Source of the DNA: Fidelibacterota bacterium
GTDB taxonomy: Bacteria; Fidelibacterota; Marinisomatia; Marinisomatales; UBA1611
Reading direction: 5' to 3'
Length of the DNA: 62,901 nucleotides
Assembly: GCA_028101095.1 (NCBI GenBank)
Contig: JAOHKG010000003.1
Coordinates: forward strand, 1-62,901
In this document: positions 26,432 to 60,985 of the stretch, in pieces
How positions within the stretch are numbered: position 1 is the first letter of the stretch
How the letters are laid out: each line of letters opens with the position of its first letter
Notes under the pieces: generated by a model
Seen by the model: the letters and a program-made list of their open reading frames with translations, nothing else
Databases searched by the model: none
What the model was told of the DNA's origin: nothing
Program-made: the position numbers and the translations under genes

Positions 26432-26432
<1 letters not shown>

Positions 26433-28660: not shown

Positions 28661-28748
28661 AATTGGTACCCTGAAAAAAGAATAATTGTCAAATTAATTT
28701 AATAAACTAACTTACCAAGGTCTTTGTTTTTATGAAAGAGTTTATAGA

Positions 28749-30623: not shown

Positions 30624-30763
30624 TATTGTTCCAAGGGTTAACCTTAATATACCGGAACCTATTTTATGAATCTTCTCTGCATCAATTAAAACTTCACCTA
30701 GTTCATTTATTGAAGATAAATAATAATCAAGTTGGTCGAGGTTATTTACCTCTGTGTTTTTTG

Positions 30764-31108: not shown

Positions 31109-31119
31109 ATATTCCTTTT

Positions 31120-31536: not shown

Positions 31537-31874
31537 CTTATTAACCTTTATTTACATATTTAATTCTTCATAAAGTAATATAAAAAAAAAGATATAACAA
31601 TTTTGTTTTTAGATAATTGTTTTATAAAACAATATAACTTATTTAATTACTTTTTTATTATATAGTACGTTCAAATGTTAACATCTTTAAGAACACAAAC
31701 TACAAAACTCTGTTTTTATATGTACTTAAGAATTTTTAAAAAAATATTCAACTGTTTATAAGTTTATAAAAAACTTGATAAACTTATAGTTGTTAAGAAA
31801 AAAAAACATAAATTTCTTTAAATAATAAAAAAAAAAACTTAGAAAATGTATGTTGATAAAAAAGTTGATAACTA

Positions 31875-33149: not shown

Positions 33150-33155
33150 ATTTAT

Positions 33156-37014: not shown

Positions 37015-37015
37015 C

Positions 37016-38863: not shown

Positions 38864-38870
38864 GTGAAAC
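38857..38870. promoter_or_regulatory. Perfect palindrome GTTTCACGTGAAAC at the mnmE-stop / mnmG-start junction
   Basis: 14-bp perfect dyad. The mnmG GTG start forms the first three bases of the second half-site. Confidence 0.6.
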
Positions 38871-40195: not shown

Positions 40196-40197
40196 GG

Positions 40198-41895
40198 TTA
40201 CCGTGGCGTTGGTGGTTTGGTCTGCGCGGTGCTTGGAACAAGTTTTTGTTGGAGGATTGTTAAAATATTGAAAAGGGTGTAATAAAGGTTTAAACCTGAG
40301 GGAAACGAATTAAACATTAAAAAGAAAAAACCAGTCATAAAATATTGCATAGTTTTCTGCTGTGGTTGTTGTGCCCCTGGAGCCATCATACGCTGTTGGA
40401 TAAACATAGAAACAACCATTAAAACAGGAAGAACAGATATTTGGTTTCCGTAAATCGGAATCGTAAAAGGTAGATGTATTATTGTATCAGGAGCAGAGAG
40501 GTCTCTTATCCACCAAACAAAAGGCTCAGCCCTAAGCTCTATTGTGGTTCTAAACACTTGAAAAAGCGCCAATAACAAGGGCATTTGAAGTAGCATTGGA
40601 AGGCACCCACCTAAAGGGTTCACACCTTTTTCTTTATAGAGCTGCATCGTCGCTTGGTTAAGCTTTTGGGGGTTGTTTTTATATTTATCTCTTAAAGCGT
40701 TTACTTCGGGTTGTATGGTTTGCATTGCTGCAGTGGACTGGTAACTTTTTTTTGTTAGCGGGTAGACAATTAGTTTAACTAAAAAAGAAAAAATTATCAA
40801 AACAATACCGTAGTTAGGAACAATCTTATGGATTTCTTTAAGGCTGTACAAAACACCCTTTGATATTGGTCTTATAAAAGACCACCCAAAATCCATAACC
40901 ATATCAAGATTAACAGATAGCGTTTTAATTTGATCGTATTCTAAAGGACCTAGGTATAAGGTAAACCCCGATTCTCTTCCAGATTCAACAACAAAGGAAG
41001 CGTTGTATGTTTCATTTTCTTGAAAATCGGAAGAAAGAAGGGTTTTTTCAACGATATTTGGTTCATTGGGCACCAGAGCTGAGATAAAGTATTTTGTTCT
41101 GATTGCAACCCAATCTGCTGGCCCATTAAATGTTTGTTCTTCGCTTTTACCGGACTTTACTTTTTGTTTTTCAAGCTCCCCACCTTGATAAACATAAGAT
41201 TGAAAATATGTTTGGTCTCCAACAACATCGTCTTCAGTGGGTGCCAGGCCACCATACCAACCAAACTCTAGATCTCTAAAAATTTGATTTCTAATTGTAC
41301 TGCAGTCGATCTGTACCTGAATAGCGTAGGAGTCAGGTAAAAATGTTAATTTTTTTGTTATTTTTTCTCCCAAAACAACAAGAGAAAACTCAAGGGTATG
41401 TTCTTCTTCTATAGTTAAAGGTGTGTATTCAGTTTCAAGTTTCCATGATTGATTTACATTTATTGGGTTTCCATCAAGGTCTTCTATAAAGAACAAAAGA
41501 TTTTCACTTTTTAATCCTGAAAGAAGGTCTACAGGCAGACTATCCGGTTTGAGGTAATTTTTTATAATAAAAGAGGTAAAGGTGCCACCATTGAGGGAAC
41601 TAACTGTTGCTTGATAGAGGTTGTTTTCAATCTTTGTGACAGTTTCGGTAAACAGGGTGTTTGGTTTGGTTTCTTTTTTTTCACCTTCTTCTGTTGGGGA
41701 AAAGCCCTTGCCTTCTGTTTTGTTGTTAACAACATCATTTGAATCGGTTGGGTTACCTAAAACTACAACCTCCTCAACTTGTGAGGGGGGAGATACAAAA
41801 TCCATATATTTAGGTGTAAATATTAAAACAACGGAGATAAGTAAGAATGCAAGTAGTGTGTTTCTATCCATTTTATTCCACGGGGTCATAGCCAC
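40198..41895 (-). CDS. yidC: Membrane protein insertase YidC
   Basis: 565 aa with a large periplasmic P1 domain and the conserved core ...GCLPMLLQMP.... Confidence 0.9.
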   Translation of the reverse strand: MAMTPWNKMDRNTLLAFLLISVVLIFTPKYMDFVSPPSQVEEVVVLGNPTDSNDVVNNKTEGKGFSPTEEGEKKETKPNTLFTETVTKIENNLYQATVSSLNGGTFTSFIIKNYLKPDSLPVDLLSGLKSENLLFFIEDLDGNPINVNQSWKLETEYTPLTIEEEHTLEFSLVVLGEKITKKLTFLPDSYAIQVQIDCSTIRNQIFRDLEFGWYGGLAPTEDDVVGDQTYFQSYVYQGGELEKQKVKSGKSEEQTFNGPADWVAIRTKYFISALVPNEPNIVEKTLLSSDFQENETYNASFVVESGRESGFTLYLGPLEYDQIKTLSVNLDMVMDFGWSFIRPISKGVLYSLKEIHKIVPNYGIVLIIFSFLVKLIVYPLTKKSYQSTAAMQTIQPEVNALRDKYKNNPQKLNQATMQLYKEKGVNPLGGCLPMLLQMPLLLALFQVFRTTIELRAEPFVWWIRDLSAPDTIIHLPFTIPIYGNQISVLPVLMVVSMFIQQRMMAPGAQQPQQKTMQYFMTGFFFLMFNSFPSGLNLYYTLFNILTILQQKLVPSTAQTKPPTPR

Positions 41896-42112
41896 CAGAA
41901 TTAAAAGGGTGACATTTAATTATACGAAAAAATATTAATTTAATTGAAACGAAGAGGTTTTTTTCCTTGAGTGCGTCGATTGCATATTGTGAACAGGTTG
42001 GACTAAAGCGGCAACTTGGGGCAAAAAAGGGGGATAATAAAAGCTGGTAACCTTTTGTTAATAAGTGCAGAAAAAACCGCAGTGAGCGATCAAAGGTGTT
42101 TAAAAAAGGCAT
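41873..42112 (-). CDS. yidD: Membrane protein insertion efficiency factor YidD
   Basis: 79 aa with LLSPFF...CRFSPTCSQYAIDAL signature. Confidence 0.85.
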   Translation of the reverse strand: MPFLNTFDRSLRFFLHLLTKGYQLLLSPFFAPSCRFSPTCSQYAIDALKEKNLFVSIKLIFFRIIKCHPFNSGGYDPVE

Positions 42113-42128
42113 TGTTTAAAAATACTTT

Positions 42129-42263
42129 TTATAGCGCTAAACGTTTACGGCCTTTTTTCCTGCGTCTTTTTAAAACGTTTCTTCCGCCAACTGTTGCTGT
42201 TCTGGCCCTGAAGCCATGTTTGTTTCTTCTTTTTCTCTTGCTTGGTTGATATGTTCTTTTCAT
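42129..42263 (-). CDS. rpmH: 50S ribosomal protein L34
   Basis: Not in the ORF track (44 aa). Hand translation gives [44 protein letters not shown], with a TAA stop. Confidence 0.9.
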
Positions 42264-42426
42264 TTTCTTCTTTTGTTATTGTATTAAAGCCCGGGAAAAT
42301 ACAGAAAGACTGGGATTAACACAAAAAATAAATAGCTTAAATAAAACAAGAAAGAAAACAATAAACTTTAGTTTTTTTGTTGACTCTAATGGTGTGTTTT
42401 TACGTAATTTTTAACTGAAACATCTA

Positions 42427-42446
42427 TGTGGACAACTTGTGGATAA
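42427..42446. promoter_or_regulatory. Two tandem DnaA boxes overlapping the dnaA start codon
   Basis: TGTGGACAA (42427-42435, one mismatch) and TGTGGATAA (42438-42446, perfect reverse complement of TTATCCACA). They are 11 bp apart and in the same orientation. Confidence 0.6.
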
Positions 42447-43800
42447 CAATATAAACAACCACGTTTCTCTGTGGAACTTGGTATATGAAAAACTGAAAGA
42501 ATTGCTTCCGGGGCACGCCATTAACACGTGGTTTGAGCCGTTAGTTCCCATTACGATAACAGATGAAGAGTTGGTAATAGAGGTGCCAAATCAATTTTCT
42601 TACGAATGGATAGACTCTCATTATCAAAAAAACCTGGTAGACGCAATTGGAGTAGTTACTGAAAACCAAATATCTTATCGTTTTATTGTTTCTGCGAAGG
42701 GGCAAAAAAAGCAAAAAGAGGAGTCTGAGTCTTATAAAAAAGTAGAAAAAGTAGTAGAACCCGCCCCAAACAACCTTAATAAGACATACACCTTCAAGTC
42801 TTTTATTAAAGGAGCCAATAATGAATTCGCTAAGTCAGCGGCACAGTCTGTTTCTGAATCTCCAGGAAAAAATTCGTTCAACCCTTTAATCATTTATGGT
42901 GGCGTAGGTCTAGGGAAGACACATTTGATTCATTCTATCGGAAATAAAATACATGAGAAGAACCCACGGTCCAAAGTTGTTATAGTTACAAGTGAAAAGT
43001 TTACATTAGACTTTGTCAACAGTTTACGAAAGAATAGAACAATAGAGTTTGCACAACAGTATAGAAATGCGGATGTTTTGTTAATTGACGATATTCAATT
43101 CTTTAGGGGAAAAGAACAAACCCAAGAACAGTTTTTTCACACTTTTAACGTTTTACAACAAGCTGGAAAACAAATCGTTATGACAACTGATAAATATCCA
43201 GCAGAAATTAAAGGACTTCAAGAAAGACTACTTTCACGGTTTCAATCAGGGTTGTCCGTTGACATACAACCCCCCAATCTAGAAATTAGAATAGCTATTC
43301 TACTAGAGAAGGCTGAACAGAACGGGATACGTTTAGATTATAATATTATTGAGTTCATCGCAAAACATATTAAAAAGAACGTTCGTGACCTCGAAGGTGC
43401 TATTATTAGAATTTTAGCTAAATCATCGTTGATGAACAAAGAAATAGATTTTCAGCTTGTTAAAGAAGTTATTCGTGAAAGAATAGGTTCTAGTTTTAGC
43501 CCAGAACTGAGCATAGAAGACGTTGTAAAAAAGGTATCCGAAATAAGCAATGTTTCAGAAATAGAAATTGTAGGTAAAAGCCGTAAGATGGAAGTTGCTG
43601 AAGCTCGGCAAGTTTCTATGTACTTATGCAGAAAAATAATTGGAACATCTCTTAACAACATCGGTGTCTTTTTCGGTGGAAGAGACCACTCTACGGTAAT
43701 ACATGCTGTGAAAACTATTGATGAGAAAATTATAAATAAAAAACATATTAAAGAGCAAATAGAGTCAATTAAACAAGAGTTAGATTTTTCCCTTGCATGA
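42439..43800 (+). CDS. dnaA: Chromosomal replication initiator DnaA
   Basis: Walker A GGVGLGKTHL, DDIQF, and C-terminal DNA-binding HSTVIHA segment. GTG start. Confidence 0.95.
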   Translation: MDNNINNHVSLWNLVYEKLKELLPGHAINTWFEPLVPITITDEELVIEVPNQFSYEWIDSHYQKNLVDAIGVVTENQISYRFIVSAKGQKKQKEESESYKKVEKVVEPAPNNLNKTYTFKSFIKGANNEFAKSAAQSVSESPGKNSFNPLIIYGGVGLGKTHLIHSIGNKIHEKNPRSKVVIVTSEKFTLDFVNSLRKNRTIEFAQQYRNADVLLIDDIQFFRGKEQTQEQFFHTFNVLQQAGKQIVMTTDKYPAEIKGLQERLLSRFQSGLSVDIQPPNLEIRIAILLEKAEQNGIRLDYNIIEFIAKHIKKNVRDLEGAIIRILAKSSLMNKEIDFQLVKEVIRERIGSSFSPELSIEDVVKKVSEISNVSEIEIVGKSRKMEVAEARQVSMYLCRKIIGTSLNNIGVFFGGRDHSTVIHAVKTIDEKIINKKHIKEQIESIKQELDFSLA

Positions 43801-44394: not shown

Positions 44395-45153
44395 ATGGTC
44401 GGAAAAGAATATCTAAATAAATTTCATCCAAAACCTTCTTTCGTTAGAAGGCAAGTTGGGTATATTGCCTTACTCATTGGCTGTGTTGTTGCAAAAATTG
44501 TTGTTCGTGGAAAGTGGCATTTACCTAAAAAAAAAGGTTTTATAATTGCGTCTAACCATTTTAGTATTTTAGATCCACCCTTTTTCAAATATGCCATTCA
44601 AAAACCAATAAACTTCCTAGCCGCAAGTGACCAAGAAGTAAACGGGGCTTTTGTCTGGGCGCTCCACCTTTATGGTTTTATTCCTATAGACAGAGAAAAC
44701 CTTGCGCCTTCAACTATTAAAAAAGCAAAAAAAGTTTTAAAAAATGGAGAAATTTTAGGGATTTTTCCAGAAGGAACAACAACCTCACCTGTTTTAAAAA
44801 AACCTAAAAATGGAGCGGTTTTTTTATCAACGGTTGAAAAAGCACCAATTGTTCCAATTTCAATCTATGGAGCAGAAACGATATGGCAAGATATTTTTAA
44901 AGGAATTCGGCCCAGGGTATATATAAATATTGGGAAGCCTTTTGGGCCCTTCGATATAAGGGGGACTAAAAGTGAAAAATTAATTAAAACAGAGTCTGTC
45001 GGGTCAGAAATGGCTGCAAGGATTGCATCGCTATTACCTAAAAGCAAAAGAGGGGAGTATAAAAATGACATTAGAATTAAAAGATATCAAAAAGAAAACA
45101 AGATAGTTCCGGCAGATGCTATAATTAGTCCTTATTATGACCCGTTATTATAA
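44395..45153 (+). CDS. Lysophospholipid (1-acylglycerol-3-phosphate) acyltransferase family protein
   Basis: HX4D block NHFSILD and FPEGTT block. Confidence 0.75.
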   Translation: MVGKEYLNKFHPKPSFVRRQVGYIALLIGCVVAKIVVRGKWHLPKKKGFIIASNHFSILDPPFFKYAIQKPINFLAASDQEVNGAFVWALHLYGFIPIDRENLAPSTIKKAKKVLKNGEILGIFPEGTTTSPVLKKPKNGAVFLSTVEKAPIVPISIYGAETIWQDIFKGIRPRVYINIGKPFGPFDIRGTKSEKLIKTESVGSEMAARIASLLPKSKRGEYKNDIRIKRYQKENKIVPADAIISPYYDPLL

Positions 45154-48659: not shown

Positions 48660-48683
48660 CAGGTTGAGAATAGGGTATTTAGG

Positions 48684-49490
48684 TTAGCTTTTATTTTTAT
48701 TTATTTCTCGAACAACTTTTTTTTGTAAAAAATTTTTAAAAAAAGTGTTTAAAAAAGGAATTAAACTTAGTTTTTTAGGAACATAGATTGTTTTTTTATC
48801 TTTTTTTATACCATCTATAATACTTTTTACACAAGACTCTAGGCTAACGGATTGACTTGTATGTTTTCTAGATTCATCTTTATGTTTTTTTCCATCAGCT
48901 CGGAAAGAGTTTCCTCTTAGATTTGTCCCTCTAATCCAACTTAAAACAGCTTCTAGTATGGTAATTTCTTCTTTGTTTTCCATTGAAATAGTTTCTAAAA
49001 AACCATGAAGGGCATGCTTTGAAGCAACATATCCGGAATGGTTTGGAAAACCCATAAGAGCTTGAGCGGTAGAACAACTAACAATTTTACCCTTTGATTT
49101 TTTCAAAAAAGGAATTGCGGCAAAGCAACAGTTTACAGACCCTAAATAGTTTGTTTTCATCAGGTCTGAAAAAAAGCTGGGGTCTGTTATTTCATCAAAC
49201 TTCGCCCACATACTTATACCCGCATTTAAGACTAAGCCATCGATTTGCCCAAATTTTTCGATAGTCCTGTCTATTAAACTTTGACATTGTTTTAGATTTG
49301 TTATATCTGTTTGAACATAAATGGCTTCTCCACCAGAAGTATTAATTTTTTCAGAAACTTTTTTAAGTTTATGTTCGGTTCTTGCAGCGCAAACAACTTT
49401 GGCACCCTCTTTTGACAGCTGCTTAGATAATTCCTCCCCAATACCTGAAGAAGCCCCTGTTATAATGAATACTTTATTCTTTAGAAGCAT
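48684..49490 (-). CDS. Short-chain dehydrogenase/reductase; candidate acyl/alkyl-DHAP reductase
   Basis: TGASSGIGEE, NAG and YVASKHAL (YxxxK) identify an SDR. The specific role is inferred only from operon context. Confidence 0.8.
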   Translation of the reverse strand: MLLKNKVFIITGASSGIGEELSKQLSKEGAKVVCAARTEHKLKKVSEKINTSGGEAIYVQTDITNLKQCQSLIDRTIEKFGQIDGLVLNAGISMWAKFDEITDPSFFSDLMKTNYLGSVNCCFAAIPFLKKSKGKIVSCSTAQALMGFPNHSGYVASKHALHGFLETISMENKEEITILEAVLSWIRGTNLRGNSFRADGKKHKDESRKHTSQSVSLESCVKSIIDGIKKDKKTIYVPKKLSLIPFLNTFFKNFLQKKVVREINKNKS

Positions 49491-49504
49491 ATTTATATAA
49501 AACT

Positions 49505-51262
49505 CTAATCGTTTACAATATTGTTGTCTACTCCAAAAATGTTTTTTGGATCCTGATCTTTTTTAATTCCTTTTATCAATGATATACTGCCATTGGAGAT
49601 TGTATCTTTCATAAAGTCTTTTCTTAATTTACCAACTCCATGATGATGTGATATTGAACCACCGTTCTTTATAAAGTTAGCCCTCATAGCATATTCAATC
49701 TCTGTAAAAACATCTTCGGGTCTCTCTATTCCATCGTAACACATTGCAATTGTGTTATACATGCAAACACCGGTGTGATATATTTTTGAAATTCGAGAGG
49801 TGAAAAACGGCTTACCGGGAAGATTATGTTTTTTATGTAGTTCGTTTAAGAGTTTATGGGCCTCTTCTTTCACCTGATTTATCTTAGACCAGGGAACAGA
49901 GGTTTCCATTGTTTCACCTAAGATGTTTTGTGTAAATATCAGTTCTCTTATATAGGCAATCACCATTGTTGCAAGGTACCCGCTCTTTCCGGTACTCTCA
50001 CCGGCAACAAAACCATTATGTTTTTTTGAAAGTGATTTTAAGTTTTTCAATTGCTGTTTTACTTCTTGAGAAGAACCTTCAATCTTAAATGTAGCAGCCG
50101 TAAACTTTTCGGGATCAAACTTTTTTATATTAAAGAGATAGTATTTGGTTAACTTATCTAAAAAGCCACCGACACCCTCTTTTTTTTCTTTTAGAGAACT
50201 TCCTAATCTAATTTGAAGGTTATCAGCTAATCGGGAGCTTGCGGGAACCATATTTGAATGATATAAGTCATACATAAATGAAACTCCGCTTTCCCAACTA
50301 TAAAATAAAATAGATTCATATGTAGACTTTTCTGGTAACCGATGGACTTTTAAAGTTGCTTTTGTTATTATTCCAAGGTTCCCCTCTGAACCAAATAAAA
50401 GGTTTTGAGCTTTTATTCCAATTGAAGCTCTTGTCAACGGTTCTATTTGGTTTATAGTTCCAGTTGGTGTAATCATTGTTATATTTTGAACAATATCTTC
50501 GATATTTCCATATCTATGTTTTTTCATACCCGCGGCATTGGTAGAAATCCATCCACCTACGGTTGAGAACTCATAGCTATCTGGTTCATGTCCAGCTGTT
50601 AGACCCTTATCGTTGAGTTGTTTCTCTAATTCTTTTCCAGTTATACCAGAATAAACAGAGACCATTAGATTTTTTTCATCAATACTTTCAATTGAGTTCA
50701 TCCTTCTGGTGTCTACGGAAACAATCATTCTTTTTTCTTTTTTTGGTGGTCTTAGTGCGTTTGTTACATTTGTACCGCCACCATAAGGAATAAGACAAAC
50801 ATCATGTTTCTTTGCAAGTTCGACCAAGCGAATTGTTTCTTCTTCATTCTCTATGTAAAAAACTAAATCTGTAAATTTTTCTAGTTTATTATATAAAACT
50901 TTATATACTTCGTCTGTGGAGTGTTGTCCATGACTATGAAGAAGACGCTCATTGTTTTCGATTGAGTATCTGTCTTCATCAAAAGTTTCCTTCATTTCTT
51001 TCACAAACATTTCGTTAATGTTCGGTTTTTCGATATATTTAACTTTTAGTTCTTTAACTTTTGGTTCTTTTTCTATTTCTATTTCAAGTATACTTTCAAC
51101 GAAAGGAATAAAACTTGTCAGTTTTTTACCACAAACAGGATATCTGTTTCCTGAGAATGTTACCGCTTTATTATCTTCTATGATAAAAGCGGAATCCTTA
51201 TAACCCCACTTGTGTCCCCAGTTCTCATCGTTCACACCAAAAAATTTTTTATTATCACTCAT
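49505..51262 (-). CDS. Alkyldihydroxyacetonephosphate synthase-like FAD oxidase (AGPS/ADPS homologue)
   Basis: WGHKWGYKDS N-terminal block, FAD/PCMH PYGGGTNV, GHEPDSYEFSTVGGWISTNAAGMKKHRYGNIEDIV, and HHH loop SISHHHGVGKLR. The track's longest ORF starts at 51298; Met at 51262 leaves a 4-nt gap to the upstream stop. Confidence 0.8.
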   Translation of the reverse strand: MSDNKKFFGVNDENWGHKWGYKDSAFIIEDNKAVTFSGNRYPVCGKKLTSFIPFVESILEIEIEKEPKVKELKVKYIEKPNINEMFVKEMKETFDEDRYSIENNERLLHSHGQHSTDEVYKVLYNKLEKFTDLVFYIENEEETIRLVELAKKHDVCLIPYGGGTNVTNALRPPKKEKRMIVSVDTRRMNSIESIDEKNLMVSVYSGITGKELEKQLNDKGLTAGHEPDSYEFSTVGGWISTNAAGMKKHRYGNIEDIVQNITMITPTGTINQIEPLTRASIGIKAQNLLFGSEGNLGIITKATLKVHRLPEKSTYESILFYSWESGVSFMYDLYHSNMVPASSRLADNLQIRLGSSLKEKKEGVGGFLDKLTKYYLFNIKKFDPEKFTAATFKIEGSSQEVKQQLKNLKSLSKKHNGFVAGESTGKSGYLATMVIAYIRELIFTQNILGETMETSVPWSKINQVKEEAHKLLNELHKKHNLPGKPFFTSRISKIYHTGVCMYNTIAMCYDGIERPEDVFTEIEYAMRANFIKNGGSISHHHGVGKLRKDFMKDTISNGSISLIKGIKKDQDPKNIFGVDNNIVND

Positions 51263-51983
51263 ATAACGATCTCGCTTTGTCTTTAATTTTTTGTTCAAGT
51301 TCTAATGTCATTTTATCTACAGCTTCAGAAATTTCTTCTTTTGAAGCATTGCTACTGTTTAAAAACGATTTAGGGTATATAGGTTCAAGAATGTATACAA
51401 TAATTCTAGAAGGTCTCATTAATATTTGATCTTTTGGCCATGCTTTGTGTGATCCGAAAATAACGGCTGGCAGAATTGGTTTATTAAGGCTAATAGCAAA
51501 GCTTGAGGCTCCTTTTTTAAACGCAGTTATATTTCCGGGTTTGCCTCGGGTACCCTCAGGAAAAAAAATTAAACACCTTTTATTATAATCCATAAACGAT
51601 TGACATAACTTAAGAGTATCTTTTATGGATAGTTGCCTCACGCCGTCTATTTTGCGATCTATTGGAATTAAGTTCATAACAGTGTTGATTAAAAATTTTC
51701 TAATCCAACTATCAAACCAATAATCTTTTGCAGCAAGCATTCCAAAATGATTAAAACTTTTTTGTGCAGAGGCAGATAAGAGAGCTACATCCATGTGGCT
51801 ATTGTGGTTACTACAGAAAATATACGATGAGTCGGGAATGTTTTCACGTCCGTAGACTTTTAAAGGTGTGTAGAAAATAAAAACAAGTTTACTGTATAAG
51901 TAAAAAAGCGTTTTCCAAATTTTAAAATAGAAAGGTTGATTCCCCAGCAAATATTTAAACTTGGGGTTTTCTAATACTCCCAT
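51255..51983 (-). CDS. HX4D glycerolipid acyltransferase; candidate DHAP acyltransferase
   Basis: NHNSHMD and FFPEGTRG blocks. The track's longest ORF starts at 52049; Met at 51983 leaves an 8-nt gap after the upstream stop. Confidence 0.75.
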   Translation of the reverse strand: MGVLENPKFKYLLGNQPFYFKIWKTLFYLYSKLVFIFYTPLKVYGRENIPDSSYIFCSNHNSHMDVALLSASAQKSFNHFGMLAAKDYWFDSWIRKFLINTVMNLIPIDRKIDGVRQLSIKDTLKLCQSFMDYNKRCLIFFPEGTRGKPGNITAFKKGASSFAISLNKPILPAVIFGSHKAWPKDQILMRPSRIIVYILEPIYPKSFLNSSNASKEEISEAVDKMTLELEQKIKDKARSLYE

Positions 51984-51991
51984 GAAAGGAT

Positions 51992-53152
51992 TTATTTTCT
52001 TCCATATTTCATATGTGCGTCCGTCCAAGTGTGTGAACCAATAGCACAAATTAGAGAAATCTCTAGAGCCAATGCGGAACCAGCAATTATTTCTGCTAGT
52101 TTCCTTGAGGAATGTTCTCCTTCATTACAGCCAAGAAGTTCTAAGTTTTTGTTTTGCATTTTAAGGCGGGTTCCGCCACCAATTGTTCCAACTGTTAATG
52201 ATGGAAGTGTTAGTTTAAACTTCAGCCCGTCTTCTCTTTTTTCTATACCAATATGAGCGATGCTGTTTTCTGCTACACATGCAGCATCTTGTCCAGTCGC
52301 CAAATAAATAGCTGTTAATGCATTAGAGACGTGCAGTCCGTTTCCATGCGTTCCCGCCATGCTAGATACAATGGGGAAAAAACTCCAGGAATCAAATAAA
52401 ATATCAGGATCCATTTTTAAAACTCTTTTCATCACACTATTCTTAATGGTTGTTTCTGCCGTAACCGCATGTCCGCGACCGAGTAGCATATTTCGAACAG
52501 AGGCTTTTTTATCACTGTTTAAATTTGATTCTAAAATATAATTCTGATTTGTTTTCTTCTGAATAAATTCGCAAGCTACCTGGGCTGCAAGTGTAACCAT
52601 ATTCTGCCCAGCTGCGTTGCTCGTGTTTAATACAATATCGAGTATTACATAGTTTTGTACTGTATATTGATCTATCCTTAAAACTTTACCGTGGCTTGTA
52701 GTGCTTTCGGCAACATTTATAATTTCTTTTTCATTCGCTTTCACCCAGTTCTGAAACTTCATGCTTTCATCAATATTGTCAAAAATAAAAACTGGAGCAC
52801 GAGAAAGCTCTTGTCTAAAGTGGCGCGCAACAGTTCCACCGCTAATATTTGCAGCATAAATACCACGATTCATTGACATCGACAAAGTTCCTTCAAGAGT
52901 ACAAAGAGGTATACAAAACTCACCCTGAGCATAAGCACCATCTAGAGAAAGTGGTCCGACAACAGACATAGGAACCTGCATAAAACCAACATGGTTTTCA
53001 ATAATTCCCTGAAGGTCTTCTGCGTTATCCCGACTTGTGTCATCAATTTCTACACCAGAAAACTGTTTAACCCATTCTTTTCTAGCATCTGTATCTTCTT
53101 GTTTGTAGCCCCTGGGAATAGAAACATTTCGTTCATTGTTTTGATCAGACAT
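51992..53152 (-). CDS. HMG-CoA reductase-like NAD(P)H thioester reductase (catalytic domain only)
   Basis: ENHVGFMQVPMSVVGPL, TLEGTLSMSMNRG, SDKK, GQDAAC, TVGTIGGGT and C-terminal His, laid out as in class I HMGR. The cofactor block reads NAAGQNM instead of DAMGxNM. Confidence 0.75.
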   Translation of the reverse strand: MSDQNNERNVSIPRGYKQEDTDARKEWVKQFSGVEIDDTSRDNAEDLQGIIENHVGFMQVPMSVVGPLSLDGAYAQGEFCIPLCTLEGTLSMSMNRGIYAANISGGTVARHFRQELSRAPVFIFDNIDESMKFQNWVKANEKEIINVAESTTSHGKVLRIDQYTVQNYVILDIVLNTSNAAGQNMVTLAAQVACEFIQKKTNQNYILESNLNSDKKASVRNMLLGRGHAVTAETTIKNSVMKRVLKMDPDILFDSWSFFPIVSSMAGTHGNGLHVSNALTAIYLATGQDAACVAENSIAHIGIEKREDGLKFKLTLPSLTVGTIGGGTRLKMQNKNLELLGCNEGEHSSRKLAEIIAGSALALEISLICAIGSHTWTDAHMKYGRK

Positions 53153-53307
53153 ATTTAAGTTTTTTCTTTGATTTAATTAAAAGTTAACATTTATCGATTC
53201 TTTTACCCAACAGAGCACTTCACGATATATAAATATACAGGAATGAATAAAGATTTTCCAACATAAATACGGGTTATAAAAAACAGTTTCAAGGTTAAGA
53301 ATTAAGG

Positions 53308-54348
53308 TTAATACCTTCTGTTTTTATTTTGATTTTTATCAAAAACAGGTTCTCCTGTTTCTGGGTCAAACTCTACACCCGAGGACTTTTTTTTAATAGG
53401 GATTCCTGTTTCTGGATTAAACTCTAACCCCGAAGGTGGCTTTTTAATAGGGTCTCCCGATTCTGGATCAAACTCTAACACCGGGTTTATTTTAGGTCTT
53501 GGCAGTGGAGTAAGTTGGTTTCCCTTTTTTAAACTAGTGTTAAAAAAGTTAAAACCCAAGCTAGCACTTATTGTCGGGTATTTTTCCGCCACACTAATAT
53601 CATATACACCTTTTAAATTCAAAAACTTAGAACTAAGTAGAGAAGCATCTATTTGAAGAGTAGTAGAAGTGTTCATTCCAAAAAGGCTAAAAATAGAACT
53701 GAAATTTTCTACTCCGAGAGTAATTCCAACCCCCTTCATTAAAAAGTTATAAGAAGCTCCTTGATACCTCTCCGGTTCCTGTGAACCGTAGGTAAAGATA
53801 CTGTGTAACCCTCCATAAAAAGGGTTTTTCTTAGACGTTGTTGTTTTAATGGATTGAATTGAATGAATCGCGGTACCAATTTCAACATTTTTATTTAGTT
53901 CAATATTTATTCCAGCTTTGAAGGGTCTCCGGTTTTTTGAATTTATATATTTTTTGTACTCGAGACCAACATGCCACGCGAATGGACTCCCGCCCCCTAC
54001 ACCAACTCCACCAGATAAACCAGCTTCTGAATTTTTATACCCCTTTAATATTGACATTTCTCCTCTTAAGCCTGCTAATCCAGTATTGACACTTAATCCT
54101 TGATATGAACCATTATTCCAATAATAATTATAAGAATAATTTTCACTGGGAGATATATACCCAAGATTTCCTTCGGGAGCGATGTTCAAAGACCCATTAA
54201 AGGATGTTGCTTTTTCCCCTTCTTCCAATATTTTTGACGTTCTGATATGGGAATTATTATAACAACCAGAAAGTATAAACAAAAAAAGCGGAAAAAGAAG
54301 AATCCTTTTTATCAACTTAGCTGGCAAAAATAATATATGAAACCACAT
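53308..54348 (-). CDS. Hypothetical lipoprotein, Gly-rich barrel-like, with C-terminal EFDPETG repeats
   Basis: Lipobox LSGC, alternating Gly/aromatic strands, three tandem repeats at the C-terminus. Confidence 0.6.
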   Translation of the reverse strand: MWFHILFLPAKLIKRILLFPLFLFILSGCYNNSHIRTSKILEEGEKATSFNGSLNIAPEGNLGYISPSENYSYNYYWNNGSYQGLSVNTGLAGLRGEMSILKGYKNSEAGLSGGVGVGGGSPFAWHVGLEYKKYINSKNRRPFKAGINIELNKNVEIGTAIHSIQSIKTTTSKKNPFYGGLHSIFTYGSQEPERYQGASYNFLMKGVGITLGVENFSSIFSLFGMNTSTTLQIDASLLSSKFLNLKGVYDISVAEKYPTISASLGFNFFNTSLKKGNQLTPLPRPKINPVLEFDPESGDPIKKPPSGLEFNPETGIPIKKKSSGVEFDPETGEPVFDKNQNKNRRY

Positions 54349-55228
54349 AGACTACGAACCCTGGAATTATAAGATATTCAGGTTTTCGCTTAAGGGTTAT
54401 AGACGGTCCAAACATTTCTATATATTCAAGATAGTTCAATGGATTTGCGATAGCCTCATCATATTCTTGTTGTGATATTATGTTTGTTTCTAGCAATTCT
54501 ACTGGTGACCGGCCATCAACAATTTTTACGAATTGTTTTTTTGTTATTTGTCCGGAGTAATATCTTTGATATACCCCTTCTCGAGGTTTTCTTTTACCCT
54601 TTTTAGTTTTTTCAATAAAATGTTTATTCTCTAATATTTTTTCTATCTCATCTTGAACCAACGCACGGATTTCTTTCTCTGTTAGATAGCGTTTTTCGGA
54701 TTCTTCTTTTTTTACGTCATCAATTTTGGTGTCTAAACCTGGAAAGTCTGGGTTTAATATGTTTGTTTTTGGTACAACTTCTTTGCTTGGGCTCTCAATC
54801 AAAGGTTTGGTTGTTTTAGTTATGTTTTCAACGTCTTCTTTTGGTTTTTTTTGGATTACAGTCTTTTTTTCAGCTTCTTTCTGCTTCTTTTCTCGAAGTA
54901 AAGTTGTATTAAAAACATCTGGGATGTTTGCTACCCATTCACCGGTCATTGGATCCAGCTCAGGTGGGAAAAGAATTTCTTCTGAAAGAGTGTTTTCATC
55001 GCAATTATAAGATAGAATTAAGCCTGAATTAGATTTCACAATTTCAATACTTTCGCAAGAGAAATATTCAATTTTATCATCGATTAAAACGTGAATGTGG
55101 TTCATATATGTACCCAAAAACTCACCACGAACTGTTTCCTTTTTTTCTTTAAAGAAAAAATTAACTTCAGTAGCAAACCCAATGCTTAGATTGAAAAAAA
55201 TAAAAATAAGCCACTTTGTTTTAACCAT
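54317..55228 (-). CDS. Hypothetical envelope protein (signal peptide, Lys/Glu-rich linker, C-terminal TM anchor)
   Basis: 303 aa. N-terminal hydrophobic segment, small beta motif, DPMTGEW, charged coil, terminal helix YLIIPGFVVYVVSYIIFAS. Confidence 0.55.
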   Translation of the reverse strand: MVKTKWLIFIFFNLSIGFATEVNFFFKEKKETVRGEFLGTYMNHIHVLIDDKIEYFSCESIEIVKSNSGLILSYNCDENTLSEEILFPPELDPMTGEWVANIPDVFNTTLLREKKQKEAEKKTVIQKKPKEDVENITKTTKPLIESPSKEVVPKTNILNPDFPGLDTKIDDVKKEESEKRYLTEKEIRALVQDEIEKILENKHFIEKTKKGKRKPREGVYQRYYSGQITKKQFVKIVDGRSPVELLETNIISQQEYDEAIANPLNYLEYIEMFGPSITLKRKPEYLIIPGFVVYVVSYIIFAS

Positions 55229-55694
55229 ACGTCTTGCCTGAAATATCTATTTTTAAAGGTTTATAAAAAGTATTTCTTCCAAGTAAAGCACCCAAAGTTG
55301 CCCCAACAAAAGTAAAAACTTTTTCGTGTTGATCACTAAAACTTTCTTTGGAAACAATAAGGGTTAAATATCCAATAGCACCCCCAAAAACGGATACACT
55401 TGTTGCCAAAAAAAACTCTGCTTTTTGAGGGACAATAAGTACGTAATCAATATTATTGTGGCTAAAGAGATTGTGGTTTATTCCATCCGAAACAATAAAA
55501 CTTTCAGGTGTTACAGTGACGAGTTCTCCCTGAACCTCCATCTTACCGGGTCCAACAAAACGAATTGTCTTTCCAGAATAGTTGTTTTTGAAATTTTCTA
55601 AGCGCGTAATTTTTACAGACTCAGAACGCAAAGCGGTCTGGGAAAAGATAAGTGACATAAAAACTATCGCAATAAATATTATTTTTAAAGTCAT
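55221..55694 (-). CDS. Hypothetical small envelope protein with glycine-zipper helices
   Basis: 157 aa. Signal peptide, small beta motif, GGAIGY and GATLGALLG glycine zippers. Confidence 0.55.
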   Translation of the reverse strand: MTLKIIFIAIVFMSLIFSQTALRSESVKITRLENFKNNYSGKTIRFVGPGKMEVQGELVTVTPESFIVSDGINHNLFSHNNIDYVLIVPQKAEFFLATSVSVFGGAIGYLTLIVSKESFSDQHEKVFTFVGATLGALLGRNTFYKPLKIDISGKTYG

Positions 55695-55705
55695 ACTAAG
55701 CTTTT

Positions 55706-57214
55706 CTAAAACTCAAAAAACTCCCAATAAAAATCTATATAAGGTTGTTGAAAATGAAGACCAATCTTAAAAGTTTCATTGAGGGTGTATTGTAAGCCAA
55801 AATCAAAATCCACCATACTTACGCTTCCAGCTGCAGACTCTAAAGAAAAAGCGGCTGTTCCATCATCGCCTAAATAATCTGAGGCTAAATCAGAAAAGTT
55901 CATTGCTCGGTACCCATTGTCTATCCATGCAGACCCTAAAAACTTTAAATCTTTTCTTAAGTCATATTCTAGAGAAGCCCAGGCGCGAAAAGGAACTTTA
56001 TATAGTTTTTCCGTACTCCAGCTTACAACACGTTCGCTTCCACCAATATTAACAGAAGGTTTAAGAAACTCATTTCTATCCAGAAAAGCATTTGAGGCTT
56101 TTATTCCTGTTGACCAACCAATTTTTCCTCTTCCAGTTGGATTAACCCTCCTTGATGAAAAAACAAGATAAGCTTCTATGTAGAAACGATCAGCATTGAC
56201 AGATTCATTTGTTACATCCGTTACACTAATATCTTTCATGGAGCCTTTAAGTTCATTTAATGGAATCGGTTCGCTTTCACCTTCTGCATTTTCACTATCA
56301 ATAGTTATAGCATGCGCATACCTAGAGACAATACTTTCAGCTGGATATTTTCTATGAAGACCAAGCCCCCAAGATGCTGCAACTTCTTTTTGAGCTGATT
56401 TTTTATGATAAAATCGCATTCTAGGATGAAGGTTTAGGTCGTTATTAAAATTTGAACCAATTTTAGAAGTTATCATAAACCTATCTGTTAATCCATACCC
56501 AATAGACAAGCCACTAAGATAAAAAGTGTTTCCTGCTAGTGGAAAAGCTGTAGGGTCTAAAAAAACATTTATCAGTTTAGATTCACCTTGGTAAAACTTT
56601 GTTCTTTCTTCAGATTTTCTATCTAAAACTCCACCATGGTAGCGTTTCATTTTTTGAATATCTCTTTTCTGAACAACAGCATCGCCGTATTGTGTTCTTA
56701 TAACAAACTCTTCTGCTGTTTCGCCCAGAACAGAACCAATAAAAAACTCACCGTTTTTATTCGTTATTTCTGCTGATTCTTCAAGAAACTGCTCAGAGGG
56801 AATGTTGAATGTTCCACTTGAAGTCTTTAATCTAATAACTTCATTTTCAATTGATAAAATCTCACCCTCTCTAATGGTTCCATCTAAAAAATGAAACCGT
56901 TTTTGCATACCAGTTTCTAGAGAAGTAGCAACCGTTAAATCTCTTTTTATTGTTTTTGTTGTTTCTTTTTCTACTGGTTTTTTAATGCTTTGGCTTTGAA
57001 AGCCTTTTATTACTTCTGCGCCTTGCATGCGGTTCAAATCGTCAAGAGGCGCACCATATTGACTCAGCAAATGGTTGTACAAGTCTTGACTAGAAAAACC
57101 TGCGCTAGCAGAAAGAGATTCTATTGCCGTTTTTTGACCAGGGAGAATGTTTCCCGACTGACTTAATAAAAAAGATGAAAGAAAAAATACCAATATAGAA
57201 TAGATTGGTTTCAT
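55706..57214 (-). CDS. Hypothetical outer-membrane beta-barrel protein with N-terminal soluble repeats
   Basis: 502 aa. Signal peptide, two small beta motifs, about 300-aa alternating-strand region ending ...YWEFFEF (terminal Phe). Confidence 0.6.
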   Translation of the reverse strand: MKPIYSILVFFLSSFLLSQSGNILPGQKTAIESLSASAGFSSQDLYNHLLSQYGAPLDDLNRMQGAEVIKGFQSQSIKKPVEKETTKTIKRDLTVATSLETGMQKRFHFLDGTIREGEILSIENEVIRLKTSSGTFNIPSEQFLEESAEITNKNGEFFIGSVLGETAEEFVIRTQYGDAVVQKRDIQKMKRYHGGVLDRKSEERTKFYQGESKLINVFLDPTAFPLAGNTFYLSGLSIGYGLTDRFMITSKIGSNFNNDLNLHPRMRFYHKKSAQKEVAASWGLGLHRKYPAESIVSRYAHAITIDSENAEGESEPIPLNELKGSMKDISVTDVTNESVNADRFYIEAYLVFSSRRVNPTGRGKIGWSTGIKASNAFLDRNEFLKPSVNIGGSERVVSWSTEKLYKVPFRAWASLEYDLRKDLKFLGSAWIDNGYRAMNFSDLASDYLGDDGTAAFSLESAAGSVSMVDFDFGLQYTLNETFKIGLHFQQPYIDFYWEFFEF

Positions 57215-58077: not shown

Positions 58078-58485
58078 ATGGGGGCAATTCTATTTGCCGG
58101 TTTAATTAGGGTCTCATTTGTATTGAGTGAGGGTAAAAGCAATGCCCCCAAAAAATTAGAGTTAGAAGATAAAAAAGGAGCAAGAAGTTTAATTAAAATT
58201 AATAATCTCCGAGATGAGAATGTAATGAAAAAAATAAATAGAATAGGAATCCGATTCTCAGTTTGATCCTCTTGTAGGAATCATTGGTGGTATGGTGTAG
58301 AATATTTTATTTCTGAGCAATTTTCTTTGGGCGGTGAAGTCTCAATGAACTTTGTAATGAACGAATGGAAAAATGAAAACCAAGACGAATACGATTATGA
58401 TGATAACGAAAATATATCAGAGGACTGTAGGTTAACTCCTGGAGTAGTTCTTATTCAATTTATTTTTAATTATTATTTTGATTGA
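58078..58485 (+). pseudogene. Possible small outer-membrane barrel remnant split by an in-frame TGA
   Basis: The 62-aa ORF ends at TGA 58264-58266. The same frame continues ...WWYGVEYFISEQFSLGGEVSMNF...GVVLIQFIFNYYFD, and its TGA overlaps the next ATG (TGATG). Confidence 0.3.
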
Positions 58486-59441
58486 TGAATATTTTTAACG
58501 ATATCCTATTTGCTGTAACAAGAGAGGATTATAAAATAGAGCATCAAACAATAATAGAAAGAAACTATAAAAAAATTCTTACAGTTTGTTCAGGTGGTTG
58601 CACGCCACTGTCATTGAAAGCATTATCAAAAAACTTGATGGTAACCGCATTTGACATTAACCCACATCAATTAATACATTTGAATAATAAAACTAAGCTC
58701 ACCCAGACAAAAAAATTAAAACAATTAAATGCAGGCTTTAAAGGTGATATGGCTCTTAATCAATGTGGGAAATTTGAAAAAATGTTCCAAGTTTTTAGAG
58801 TTTCATTTATTAAAAATATAACTACTGAATCTGAAATAGAAGAACTCTTCAATCTCAAAACTGAGGAGAAAAAGAGAAATTATATCATATTAAGTTGGTT
58901 AAAGAACTCGAATATTAAAACCCCTTTTAAAAAAGTGTTTAACGATGAAGTAATAGAATCAATCTTTAGTAAGCGGGCAACGCAACATGCTACTCCAGGT
59001 ACGTATATTGAGTATTTTTTTAATAAGATAATGAATTCTTTTAAATCGAATAATTTTTACAAAAACCCTTTTCTACAGCACATTTTTTTAGGATATTATT
59101 TGAAAGAAAGTTTTATGCCATACATTAATTATCAAAAAGAATTAAAGATCAAAACCGTTCTTGGTACTGTTCATGATGTTCCCAATATTGAAACATATGA
59201 TTTGGTCAGCCTATCTAATCTGTTCGATTGGTGTGATACACAGTTTGTAAAGCAATGTGCATCGTACTTATCTAAGCTTAGATCCGGATCAGGTATTATT
59301 CTAAGGCAGCTAAACAATGACAAAAACTGGTATCCTATTTTTAAAAATCAATTTGAAGAAGACACTTCATTCAATACTTATTGGAAAAAAAATGATAGGA
59401 GCATGTTTTACGATCATTTTAGACTTTTCATAAAAAAATGA
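58485..59441 (+). CDS. BtaA-like (DUF3419) SAM-dependent 3-amino-3-carboxypropyl-transferase family protein
   Basis: FAVTREDY..., ILTVCSGGCTPLSL, AFDINPHQLIHLN, LSNLFDWCD blocks as in BtaA. It is shorter (318 aa) than BtaA. The track starts it at TTG 58482. Confidence 0.65.
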   Translation: MNIFNDILFAVTREDYKIEHQTIIERNYKKILTVCSGGCTPLSLKALSKNLMVTAFDINPHQLIHLNNKTKLTQTKKLKQLNAGFKGDMALNQCGKFEKMFQVFRVSFIKNITTESEIEELFNLKTEEKKRNYIILSWLKNSNIKTPFKKVFNDEVIESIFSKRATQHATPGTYIEYFFNKIMNSFKSNNFYKNPFLQHIFLGYYLKESFMPYINYQKELKIKTVLGTVHDVPNIETYDLVSLSNLFDWCDTQFVKQCASYLSKLRSGSGIILRQLNNDKNWYPIFKNQFEEDTSFNTYWKKNDRSMFYDHFRLFIKK

Positions 59442-60334
59442 ATTTATTATTTCAAGTTTGCGATGAAGAAGGCTTATCTAAATACGTCCAAGAATTAAAA
59501 GAGATCGAAGAAAATATCTTATATCCTTTAGAAAATGGCGCAGAATCATTTAGAATAAGTCACGGAAAGATGTACACTCCATTTTTTACAAATCAAGGCT
59601 ATAAAACAAGGTTTCTTGTAATAAAAGATGGGCAAAAAGTTATAGGTGGGATTGTTGCTATTTGGAAAAACATAACAATATCAAATCAAATACATAAACT
59701 TCTATATGTTGCAGATTTAAAATTAAAAAAAGGTTATAGAGGGAAAGGTGTTATTAAAAGAAGTCTTTCTTACTTATTTATAAGATGGCCTTTTATAAAA
59801 AACTTTCAAGGGTGGGATTTAATATACTTTTGTGCAATGCAAAGACGAGAAGTTGGAGTAGATAAAACGTTTAAAGGGATGCACTTAGGAAGGTTGGCAA
59901 AACCAGTTGCTGAACTTTTTATATATATGGTTGACCCAAAGTTATTTTCGGATCATAATTTTTCTAGACTAGAGTACAGACCCTTAAAACATATAAATTT
60001 GAGCCAAGATCGGGAAAAAAATGTTCTTTGGAACGATGGAATAAAAGATATTATTTCAAATAAAAACGGGCAGAAAATCAAACTTGGGCACTTAAACCCA
60101 GAAATATTTATCAAGTTAAATAAAAAAAAATTTGATGATGCGATCAAAGAAATAAAAGAGAAAACAGGTAGTTTAGCTTGTTTTTCGATTGATACAAAAG
60201 AACAAGAAAAACTAGATTGGCTTAAAGAAATGGGCTTACAATCAGAGACAAAATGTAAAATATTTTCATTCAGTCCTTTCTCATTTGGATCTATTAAATC
60301 TAATACATTTTATATATCAACAGGAGAAATATAA
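59438..60334 (+). CDS. Hypothetical protein with GNAT-like acyltransferase core
   Basis: VIGGIVAIW...LLYVADLKLKKGYRGKGVIKRSL resembles GNAT motif A. ATGA overlap with the upstream gene. Confidence 0.45.
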   Translation: MNLLFQVCDEEGLSKYVQELKEIEENILYPLENGAESFRISHGKMYTPFFTNQGYKTRFLVIKDGQKVIGGIVAIWKNITISNQIHKLLYVADLKLKKGYRGKGVIKRSLSYLFIRWPFIKNFQGWDLIYFCAMQRREVGVDKTFKGMHLGRLAKPVAELFIYMVDPKLFSDHNFSRLEYRPLKHINLSQDREKNVLWNDGIKDIISNKNGQKIKLGHLNPEIFIKLNKKKFDDAIKEIKEKTGSLACFSIDTKEQEKLDWLKEMGLQSETKCKIFSFSPFSFGSIKSNTFYISTGEI

Positions 60335-60985
60335 ATGAAGACATTTATAAGAACACTTAAGCAAAAAACTCCAATACACAAAAACTATTATTTCGCAAAG
60401 TTGAGAAATGATGAATTAACGCTGGAAGAGTTTCAAAAATCACAACTTAACTTTTTCGATGCAGTTCTTTCATTTACAAAACCAATGTTTATAATCTCAA
60501 GCAAATTAGATTCGTACGAACAGAGACTGTTAGTTTTAGAAAATATTTTCGAAGAACATGGTAATGGTGACATAACAAAAAATCATGGAAACACATTTGA
60601 GGAGTATTTAATTTTACTTGGAGTAAATAAAAAAGAGATAAAAAACCGTAGGGTAAATAAGTCATCACAAAATTTTAATCTTTCTTTGATAGAATACTCC
60701 CAAAAAGAATCTACGTACTTTAGTTTAGCAATGATGGGAATCATTGAAGAAAGGTATTCTGAAATGTCAAAACTAATATCAGAAAAATTATTAAAAAACA
60801 AATGGCTAACAGAGGAAACGCTAGTCCACTATAAAGTTCATGAAAAATTAGACATTGAACACGCAGAGTCTTTTTATCATTTAATAAGTTCTAAGTGGTT
60901 AGATAAAAACATACGAAATGATATAAAAAAAGGGCTTCTGTTCGGAAATAATTTGATTTTAAATTTATATACAGATCTGCTTTGA
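60335..60985 (+). CDS. Heme-oxygenase-like diiron oxidase/oxygenase (HDO; CADD/PqqC/TenA-like fold)
   Basis: FEEHGNGDITKNH, IIEERY and HEKLDIEHAESF give a 3-His/3-carboxylate-type ligand pattern. Confidence 0.7.
   Translation: MKTFIRTLKQKTPIHKNYYFAKLRNDELTLEEFQKSQLNFFDAVLSFTKPMFIISSKLDSYEQRLLVLENIFEEHGNGDITKNHGNTFEEYLILLGVNKKEIKNRRVNKSSQNFNLSLIEYSQKESTYFSLAMMGIIEERYSEMSKLISEKLLKNKWLTEETLVHYKVHEKLDIEHAESFYHLISSKWLDKNIRNDIKKGLLFGNNLILNLYTDLL

Follow-up and report, generated by a model that had tools for sequence, protein, structure and literature searches.

A predicted FcrA-type fatty acyl-CoA reductase gene in a putative four-gene ether-lipid cassette of marine Marinisomatota

Proteins of a large monophyletic group carry annotations as class-I 3-hydroxy-3-methylglutaryl-CoA (HMG-CoA) reductases (HMGRs) but have been reported to be fatty acyl-CoA reductases, termed FcrA (Grossi et al. 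2025, ISME J, PMC11948995). The purified enzyme of Ca. Promineifilum breve uses NADPH to convert acyl-CoAs from C14 upwards to fatty alcohols; HMG-CoA is not reduced, and simvastatin has no inhibitory effect (PMC11948995). An optional link to alkylglycerone-phosphate synthase (AGPS) and ether lipids was proposed by the same authors, the sole example being an AGPS gene located nine genes away in P. breve (PMC11948995). In Myxococcus xanthus, the MXAN_1676-1675-1674 operon encodes AGPS, a fusion of a fatty acyl-CoA reductase (FAR) with an acyltransferase, and an NAD-dependent reductase (PMC9131029, PMC13012113). The gene described here occupies positions 51992 to 53152 on the minus strand of a 62,901-nucleotide stretch of contig JAOHKG010000003.1 from a Fidelibacterota bacterium (assembly GCA_028101095.1), the whole of which is referred to as the window. 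This gene is predicted from its sequence, with a probability of roughly 0.8, to encode an FcrA-type fatty acyl-CoA reductase residing in an ether-lipid cassette with an acyltransferase, AGPS and a short-chain dehydrogenase/reductase (SDR). The cassette and its upstream region comprise the following features, in which DHAP is dihydroxyacetone phosphate (glycerone-phosphate).

51992..53152, minus strand: fcrA-type gene, class-I HMGR-like stand-alone domain, predicted acyl-CoA/acyl-thioester reductase (Pfam, PDB matches, alignment, trees)
51255..51983, minus strand: PlsC-family acyltransferase of 242 aa, candidate DHAP or sn-2 acyltransferase (H60NSHMD65, an HX4D motif, and FPEGTRG)
49505..51262, minus strand: AGPS of 585 aa (PDB match 4bby, SHHHGVGK motif)
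48684..49490, minus strand: classical SDR of 268 aa, candidate acyl/alkyl-DHAP reductase, last gene of the module (TGASSGIG, Y154xxxK)
53153..53307, minus strand: intergenic region of 155 nt located 5' of fcrA, putative promoter region of low confidence (weak sigma-70-like match)

The same four activities, as predicted here, are found in the Myxococcus operon and in the eukaryotic peroxisomal pathway (FAR1, GNPAT, AGPS and acyl/alkyl-DHAP reductase). In those systems, the alcohol-forming enzyme is a Rossmann-fold FAR, fused to the acyltransferase in Myxococcus, whereas the window encodes an unrelated HMGR-fold enzyme; the window acyltransferase is of the small PlsC type rather than GNPAT-like, and the final reductase is a classical SDR rather than a member of the epimerase/dehydratase family. 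The presence of a conventional FAR in Myxococcus where the window has the HMGR-like gene is the pattern expected for non-homologous replacement. In comparison with FcrA, the window protein is core-only (386 aa), with neither an N-terminal Lad nor an acyl carrier protein (ACP) domain, and, unlike the P. breve gene, its gene is in a four-gene operon directly with AGPS. Of 134 Black Sea metagenome-assembled genomes (MAGs) of Marinisomatota, 49 were already known to encode AGPS homologues (PMC11868695). The searchable literature yielded no mention of the HMGR-like partner of these homologues, nor of the tight four-gene operon, its cross-lineage recurrence as a distinct FcrA subclade or its transcription in the ocean.

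Signature residues and placement of the HMGR-like protein

A minus-strand ATG-to-stop open reading frame (ORF) fills positions 51992 to 53152 exactly and encodes a 386-aa product. Residues 22 to 385 match the Pfam HMG-CoA_red family (PF00368; 333 bits, E 2e-99), and the top PDB match is 6hr7, the class-I HMGR of Methanothermococcus thermolithotrophicus (242 bits, E 7.5e-71, residues 19 to 385), followed by plant and then human enzymes. On these matches, the HMGR fold of the protein is unambiguous. The first-pass annotation, in which the gene was described as encoding a stand-alone HMGR domain of 386 aa but its strand was not stated, was confirmed by the ORF and the PF00368 match, and every motif quoted there was located in the protein (TLEG at 85, NAAGQNM at 179, SDKK at 213, GQDAAC at 287 and the C-terminal H380). 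The protein fails the NCBIfam HMGR equivalog model TIGR00533 (274.4 bits versus a cutoff of 441.8), marking it as an atypical HMGR. A dN/dS value of 0.03 was obtained for fcrA against the closest ortholog, synonymous sites being saturated against other relatives; this strong purifying selection indicates that the gene is not a decaying paralog. This protein and its homologs carry HMG-CoA reductase labels in the source databases, and the close homologs are assigned there to Candidatus Marinimicrobia or Neomarinimicrobiota (SAR406).

FcrA retains Glu559, Lys691, Asp767 and His866 (human numbering) and differs from HMGR at three pocket positions (PMC11948995). Leu862 gives way to a bulky side chain and Ser684 to an acidic one (Trp528 and Glu360, respectively, in the Natronomonas pharaonis homolog), and a conserved HMG-binding Lys, printed as 'Lys795', gives way to a non-Lys and generally small residue (PMC11948995). 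These changes were put forward as a possible reason for the absence of HMG-CoA reduction (PMC11948995). We take 'Lys795' to be Lys735, because in the human enzyme as well as in that of N. pharaonis the residue lies 44 positions beyond the catalytic Lys. Lys735 is the residue that forms a salt bridge with the HMG carboxylate in the statin and HMG complex structures.

The window protein was aligned with 255 homologs and three HMGRs from the PDB, and the alignment was repeated with added controls. The catalytic tetrad is kept, with E87, K215, D289 and H380 aligning with human E559, K691, D767 and H866, and the residues aligned with human S565, R590, K692, H752 and N755 are conserved, as in CoA-using enzymes. 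All three pocket positions are changed, Ser684 to Glu208, Lys735 to Phe259 and Leu862 to Trp376. E208 is seven residues ahead of K215 and is E or D in close homologs; F259 (F258 in some alignments) occupies the Lys735 position, 44 residues after the catalytic Lys, and is F or Y in close homologs; and W376 is four residues ahead of H380, with W or F present in 116 of 116 close homologs. The window protein therefore resembles the FcrA proteins of P. breve and N. pharaonis in its class-I HMGR core, its Glu/Lys/Asp/His tetrad, the three pocket changes at the same spacing (7 before Lys, 44 after Lys and 4 before His) and the absence of mevalonate genes nearby, and differs from them in having Phe/Tyr at the Lys735 position and Asn for the Asp of the DAMG loop.

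Four mevalonate-linked HMGRs served as references: those of human, Arabidopsis, Methanothermococcus and Streptomyces, the last being a control that lies inside an mvk-mvaD-pmk-fni-HMGR-hmgs cluster. All four have S, K and L at the three pocket positions and a loop of DAMG or DASG. A pocket like that of the query (E/D, non-K, F/W) was present in most of the 150 representatives obtained by an exhaustive search and in stand-alone Vibrio and Alteromonas copies. An altered cofactor loop had been claimed in the first-pass annotation; NAAGQNM is present, but it is mostly the normal form for FcrA-like proteins, which generally have DAAGQN or DASGQN, and the clade-specific part is confined to the first position, with Asn in place of Asp (Glu in the Caldithrix relative). 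Relative to canonical class-I HMGRs (EC 1.1.1.34; 1DQ8/1DQ9, 6HR7 and the Streptomyces enzyme), the window protein has the same fold, dimer/tetramer-type catalytic domain and tetrad and, by prediction, the same four-electron conversion of a CoA thioester to a primary alcohol. It differs in the absence of Ser684, Lys735, Leu862 and DAMG, in scoring below TIGR00533, in its tree bipartition and in having no mevalonate-pathway neighbours.

Bootstrapped neighbour-joining (NJ) trees, which are distance trees of top matches only, were constructed with 148 and 153 sequences. HMGRs with the canonical signature formed their own bipartition, with a bootstrap value of 86% in the first tree and 74% in the tree with more controls, and the query was outside this group, on the FcrA-signature side, in both. 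The AGPS-linked proteins (Marinisomatota, Caldithrix and six further representatives) formed one 15-member clade with an NJ bootstrap of 96%. The identity of the window protein to other FcrA-like representatives was only approximately 35 to 45%. No AGPS gene was found near five relatives outside this clade, namely P0128, which has an extra N-terminal domain, P0135 and the Alteromonas, Vibrio and Streptomyces copies. As members of the clade are AGPS-linked and these five relatives are not, the window protein is placed in an AGPS-linked subclade of FcrA-like enzymes. Every sequence-level feature published for FcrA is present in this protein, albeit with a bulky rather than a small residue in place of Lys735, and the protein departs from canonical HMGRs in score, HMG-binding residues, loop and context. 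These comparisons point to a further member of FcrA, with unusually strong genomic evidence for an ether-lipid role.

Pfam scans of the main ORFs of the window detected no mevalonate-pathway gene, FAR-type reductase (NAD_binding_4) or wax synthase (WS/DGAT). A tblastn search of the window and 20 related loci (357 kb) with the Streptomyces mvk/mvaD/pmk/fni/hmgs set returned the HMGR-like gene only. The earlier statements that the window holds no other mevalonate-pathway gene and that the operon has no FAR-type reductase are both in agreement with these searches. A protein search of a plasmid collection turned up neither a haloarchaeal FcrA nor an AGPS operon on a plasmid, and provided as controls the Streptomyces mevalonate cluster and the stand-alone Alteromonas and Vibrio copies. 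A literature search on isoprenoid pathways in Marinimicrobia gave nothing specific.

The two stand-alone copies are annotated 'hydroxymethylglutaryl-CoA reductase' and are located on plasmids of cultured hosts, Vibrio fluvialis (L023, 5758-7020) and Alteromonas macleodii (L021, 8025-9191). Their pockets are of the FcrA type, with D/T/F and A/S/W, respectively, and no mevalonate or AGPS genes are among their neighbours. Judging from these residues, both are probably mis-annotated FcrA-like enzymes and, as their hosts are easily cultured, they are potentially useful experimentally.

The cassette across genomes and in marine RNA

The genes of the operon are tightly packed, with 8 nt between the fcrA stop and the acyltransferase, an 8-nt overlap of the acyltransferase with AGPS and 14 nt between AGPS and the SDR, the start sites of the downstream genes being taken from a separate gene prediction made on a metagenome contig of identical sequence. 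The 155-nt gap upstream of fcrA stands out against these distances, and fcrA is first in every related locus, in keeping with its earlier description as the first gene of the operon. The third gene is unambiguously AGPS, its product matching guinea-pig AGPS (4bby) over nearly the full length (residues 17 to 580; 445 bits, E 2e-132) with the HHH motif kept. The operon acyltransferase scored 67 bits against TIGR00530, below the cutoff of that model, and had PlsC 5kym as its top PDB match. The SDR has an intact catalytic Tyr-Lys pair, and its candidate role was assigned by its conserved position in the operon only.

A second PlsC-type acyltransferase gene (44395-45153, plus strand, 252 aa) is located approximately 6 kb from the operon, beside ssb and dnaA. 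It scored 89 bits against TIGR00530, as compared with 67 bits for the operon copy, and occupies the same position in relatives. This gene probably encodes the housekeeping sn-2 enzyme; the operon copy would then be a specialised paralog.

A genome scan detected 19 related loci, from Marinisomatota MAGs and one Caldithrix MAG (51% identity). The acyltransferase and AGPS genes follow the HMGR-like gene in all 17 loci that extend past it, and the SDR gene is also kept in all 14 that reach far enough, that of Caldithrix included. Order and spacing are as in the window, while the flanking genes differ. Among the next-nearest representatives outside the scan group (41 to 45% identity), genomic context was looked up for six with the AGPS module. 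All four module genes are present in P0123 and P0125; P0121 has the HMGR-like, AGPS and SDR genes; in P0124 and P0122 the HMGR-like gene is followed by AGPS; and in P0126 it is followed by the acyltransferase, at which point the short contig stops. These six loci range from 33 to 61% G+C and have unrelated neighbourhoods. The synteny with AGPS is conserved across lineages and is not a coincidence. One locus, L008 (CAZVSF010000005.1), is labelled 'uncultured Lentisphaeria bacterium' and contains the four-gene operon with 79% identity to the window protein and a Marinisomatota-like synteny; the label is probably due to a binning or taxonomy-label error.

Nearly identical sequences of the operon were present in at least 20 marine metagenome runs and also in many metatranscriptomes. 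In four RNA runs, assembled contigs covered all four genes and spanned all three internal junctions, as follows (run and window positions).

fcrA/acyltransferase junction: X26, 51883-53259; X28, 51771-52546; X25, 51509-52012
Acyltransferase/AGPS junction: X25, 50746-51374; X27, 51239-51488; X28, 51049-51374
AGPS/SDR junction: X25, 48663-49678; X27, 48918-49870; X26, 49209-49882

The gap after the SDR gene was spanned by none of the longest RNA contigs, a set outside which there were a further 35 shorter ones. The presence of contigs across each junction and of none among the longest past the SDR fits a four-gene transcript. One X25 contig (52020-54091) joins the upstream gene to fcrA, and read-through from upstream is possible. 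A weak sigma-70-like match, TTGGAA-18-TATATT, is located at 53261-53232, and one of the RNA contigs ends at 53259. Scans for consensus promoters and terminators around the operon gave matches no more frequent than those in shuffled sequence.

Proposed pathway and its alternatives

AGPS requires a free fatty alcohol, and a four-electron reduction of a thioester fits this need. In the proposed pathway, FcrA would convert a long-chain acyl-CoA to a primary fatty alcohol, using an HMG-binding pocket remodelled for a long unbranched acyl chain and the retained HMGR machinery for two hydride transfers. By analogy with class-I HMGR and the characterised FcrA, Glu87, Lys215 and Asp289 would act as their HMGR equivalents do; a first hydride from NAD(P)H would convert the thioester carbonyl to a hemithioacetal, His380 would assist departure of CoA, and a second NAD(P)H would reduce the resulting aldehyde. 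According to the proposal of Grossi et al., the HMG carboxylate is repelled by the acidic residue that stands in for Ser684, its salt bridge is lost together with the Lys, and an aromatic residue at the Leu862 position excludes the branched HMG and packs on a straight chain (PMC11948995). Glu208, Phe259 and Trp376 may take the corresponding three roles in the window protein. The operon acyltransferase would produce 1-acyl-DHAP, AGPS would swap the acyl group for the fatty alcohol made by FcrA to give 1-O-alkyl-DHAP, and the SDR would reduce the ketone to yield 1-O-alkyl-glycerol-3-phosphate. The four genes would thus form a self-contained cassette for precursors of 1-O-alkyl (plasmanyl-type) ether lipids in marine SAR406/Marinisomatota.

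Recruitment of an HMGR fold as an acyl-CoA-to-alcohol reductase feeding AGPS was the main proposal of the first-pass annotation, and it is supported by sequence, phylogeny, synteny and expression. The accompanying claim of a new function for the family does not hold, FcrA having been described in February 2025 in a paper that already suggested the feeding of AGPS by some members. We lean slightly towards a broader proposal, that the AGPS-linked FcrA subclade marks a compact cassette, present in diverse genomic backgrounds, in which an HMGR-fold enzyme replaces FAR as the supplier of the alcohol.

Several observations weigh against assignment of the operon to FcrA-dependent ether-lipid synthesis. 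The Phe/Tyr at the Lys735 position is bulky, as compared with the 'generally small' residue described for FcrA, and the DAMG loop begins with Asn (N179) rather than Asp in 116 of 116 close homologs. Assignment to FcrA is based on diagnostic residues and on separation from canonical HMGRs, in trees that are distance-based rather than maximum-likelihood and do not contain the P. breve FcrA (CUS01882.1). The specificities of the acyltransferase and SDR are predicted from context only. The RNA contigs are strandless, they demonstrate presence and never absence, and DNA may be present in metatranscriptomes.

Some features of the window protein are those of an ordinary class-I HMGR forming mevalonate, for which the adjacency to AGPS would be coincidental or would reflect a link to isoprenoid alcohols: the Pfam HMG-CoA_red match is strong, an archaeal HMGR gives the best PDB match (242 bits), all four catalytic residues are kept and the source databases label homologs as HMG-CoA reductase. 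The changes of Lys735 to Phe, Ser684 to Glu and Leu862 to Trp argue in the opposite direction, as do the characterised FcrA, which does not reduce HMG-CoA (PMC11948995), the score under the equivalog cutoff, the lack of mvk, pmk, mvaD, fni and hmgs in the 357 kb of the window and related loci, and the cross-lineage synteny with AGPS. A role in the mevalonate pathway is, on this balance, very unlikely for the window protein. The variant raised in the first-pass annotation, an ordinary HMGR supplying isoprenoid alcohols, finds no support, since the Lys contacting the HMG carboxylate and Ser684 are replaced and there is no mevalonate gene nearby. The fatty alcohols might instead go chiefly into wax esters or some other neutral lipid, as happens in haloarchaea, with AGPS a secondary destination; a precedent is that FcrA was found via wax-ester synthesis and is present in approximately 25% of predicted wax-ester-producing bacteria. 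The window contains no WS/DGAT domain, however, every related locus shows tight translational packing of the gene with AGPS, and the AGPS-linked proteins have their own subclade, so this use of the alcohols seems extremely improbable.

A further alternative is that the protein is an FcrA-like thioester reductase with another substrate or product, such as an acyl-ACP, a different chain length or branching, NADH as cofactor or release of an aldehyde; most of these versions would leave the alcohol as the substrate of AGPS. No acyl-CoA synthetase is encoded in the operon, fusions to ACP domains in some relatives imply substrates bound to phosphopantetheine, the Asp-to-Asn change (Glu in Caldithrix) falls within the conserved DAMGxN loop and is clade-specific, and the bulky Phe/Tyr at the Lys735 position is unlike the small residues described for FcrA. 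Conversely, the equivalents of S565, R590, K692, H752 and N755 are conserved as in CoA-using enzymes, the characterised FcrA takes acyl-CoA and NADPH (PMC11948995), and the need of AGPS for a free fatty alcohol means that the operon requires a four-electron reduction. A different substrate or product is, therefore, considered unlikely, and an acyl-CoA reductase of the FcrA type remains the preferred assignment. Within FcrA, the Asp-to-Asn loop change and the bulky Phe/Tyr might reflect a distinct specificity for cofactor or chain length.

SAR406/Marinisomatota are among the most abundant bacterial groups of the deep ocean, and non-isoprenoid 1-O-alkyl glycerol ether lipids occur in marine water columns and sediments. 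If the proposed pathway is correct, SAR406/Marinisomatota and the other carriers of the cassette would be real sources of these marine lipids, and alkyl glycerol ether lipids, a class that serves as geochemical biomarkers, would have candidate producers among abundant uncultured marine bacteria. A label of HMG-CoA reductase would wrongly imply a mevalonate pathway in SAR406, an annotation that recognition of FcrA corrects. The published case of FcrA with AGPS is a loose co-occurrence, whereas the operon described here is shared by different lineages and is transcribed in the ocean. For bacterial AGPS pathways that lack FAR, the missing alcohol source would be reduced to a four-gene unit open to direct testing.

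Other features of the window and of FcrA-like relatives

The window has a G+C content of 34%, and the remainder is ordinary chromosome near the origin, including dnaA, dnaN, recF, gyrB, gyrA, yidC, mnmE, mnmG, peptidases and pyruvate dehydrogenase. In the origin region (26432-43800), the minus strand encodes recF, dnaN, yidC, mnmE and mnmG and the plus strand dnaA; gyrB/gyrA lie just below (21673-26160). A 543-nt intergenic gap ahead of dnaA (41896-42438) is a candidate oriC.

Four consecutive minus-strand genes (53308-57214) are located 5' of fcrA and encode products of 346, 303, 157 and 502 aa, for which no Pfam or NCBIfam family match was obtained. These genes are kept only in the closest relatives, at 30 to 68% identity. 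In run X25, RNA contig depth over 54209-55000 was approximately 4- to 6-fold that of the operon.

A trio of plus-strand genes (58482-60985), divergent from the fcrA operon, encodes a DUF3419 protein, a 298-aa protein matching no family and a Haem_oxygenas_2/CADD-like iron redox enzyme. DUF3419 is a BtaA-like family of lipid head-group transferases, and the trio may be another lipid-modifying unit. It was found near the fcrA operon in four other Marinisomatota loci (L003, 6785-9228; L006, 140-1096; L009, 1845-4345; L010, 1189-3689) and directly adjoins fcrA in L003 and L006. A possible match of these three genes to the neighbourhood of the HMGR-like gene on the Alteromonas plasmid was rejected, as tblastn detected no homology.

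Several distant relatives have AMP-binding (fatty-acid-activating) and ACP domains fused to the HMGR-like domain. These fusions resemble ElbD (FadD-ACP-FAR-acyltransferase) in their activate-then-reduce logic, as found also in carboxylic-acid reductases; unlike ElbD, the window protein is unfused, and the reductase domains are unrelated in fold. Many FcrA-like relatives of 800 to 1450 aa (P0140, P0142, P0143, P0186 and P0144) have a C-terminal kinase domain of the APH/EcKL type, some of them also with N-terminal AMP-binding and ACP domains. Fusion of a kinase to a putative alcohol-forming enzyme suggests that the fatty alcohol is phosphorylated, or that the kinase serves in regulation; the consulted text of the FcrA paper makes no mention of such a fusion (PMC11948995). 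In P0150, a PilZ (c-di-GMP-binding) domain is N-terminal to the FcrA-like domain, which hints at control of fatty-alcohol synthesis by a second messenger in some bacteria.

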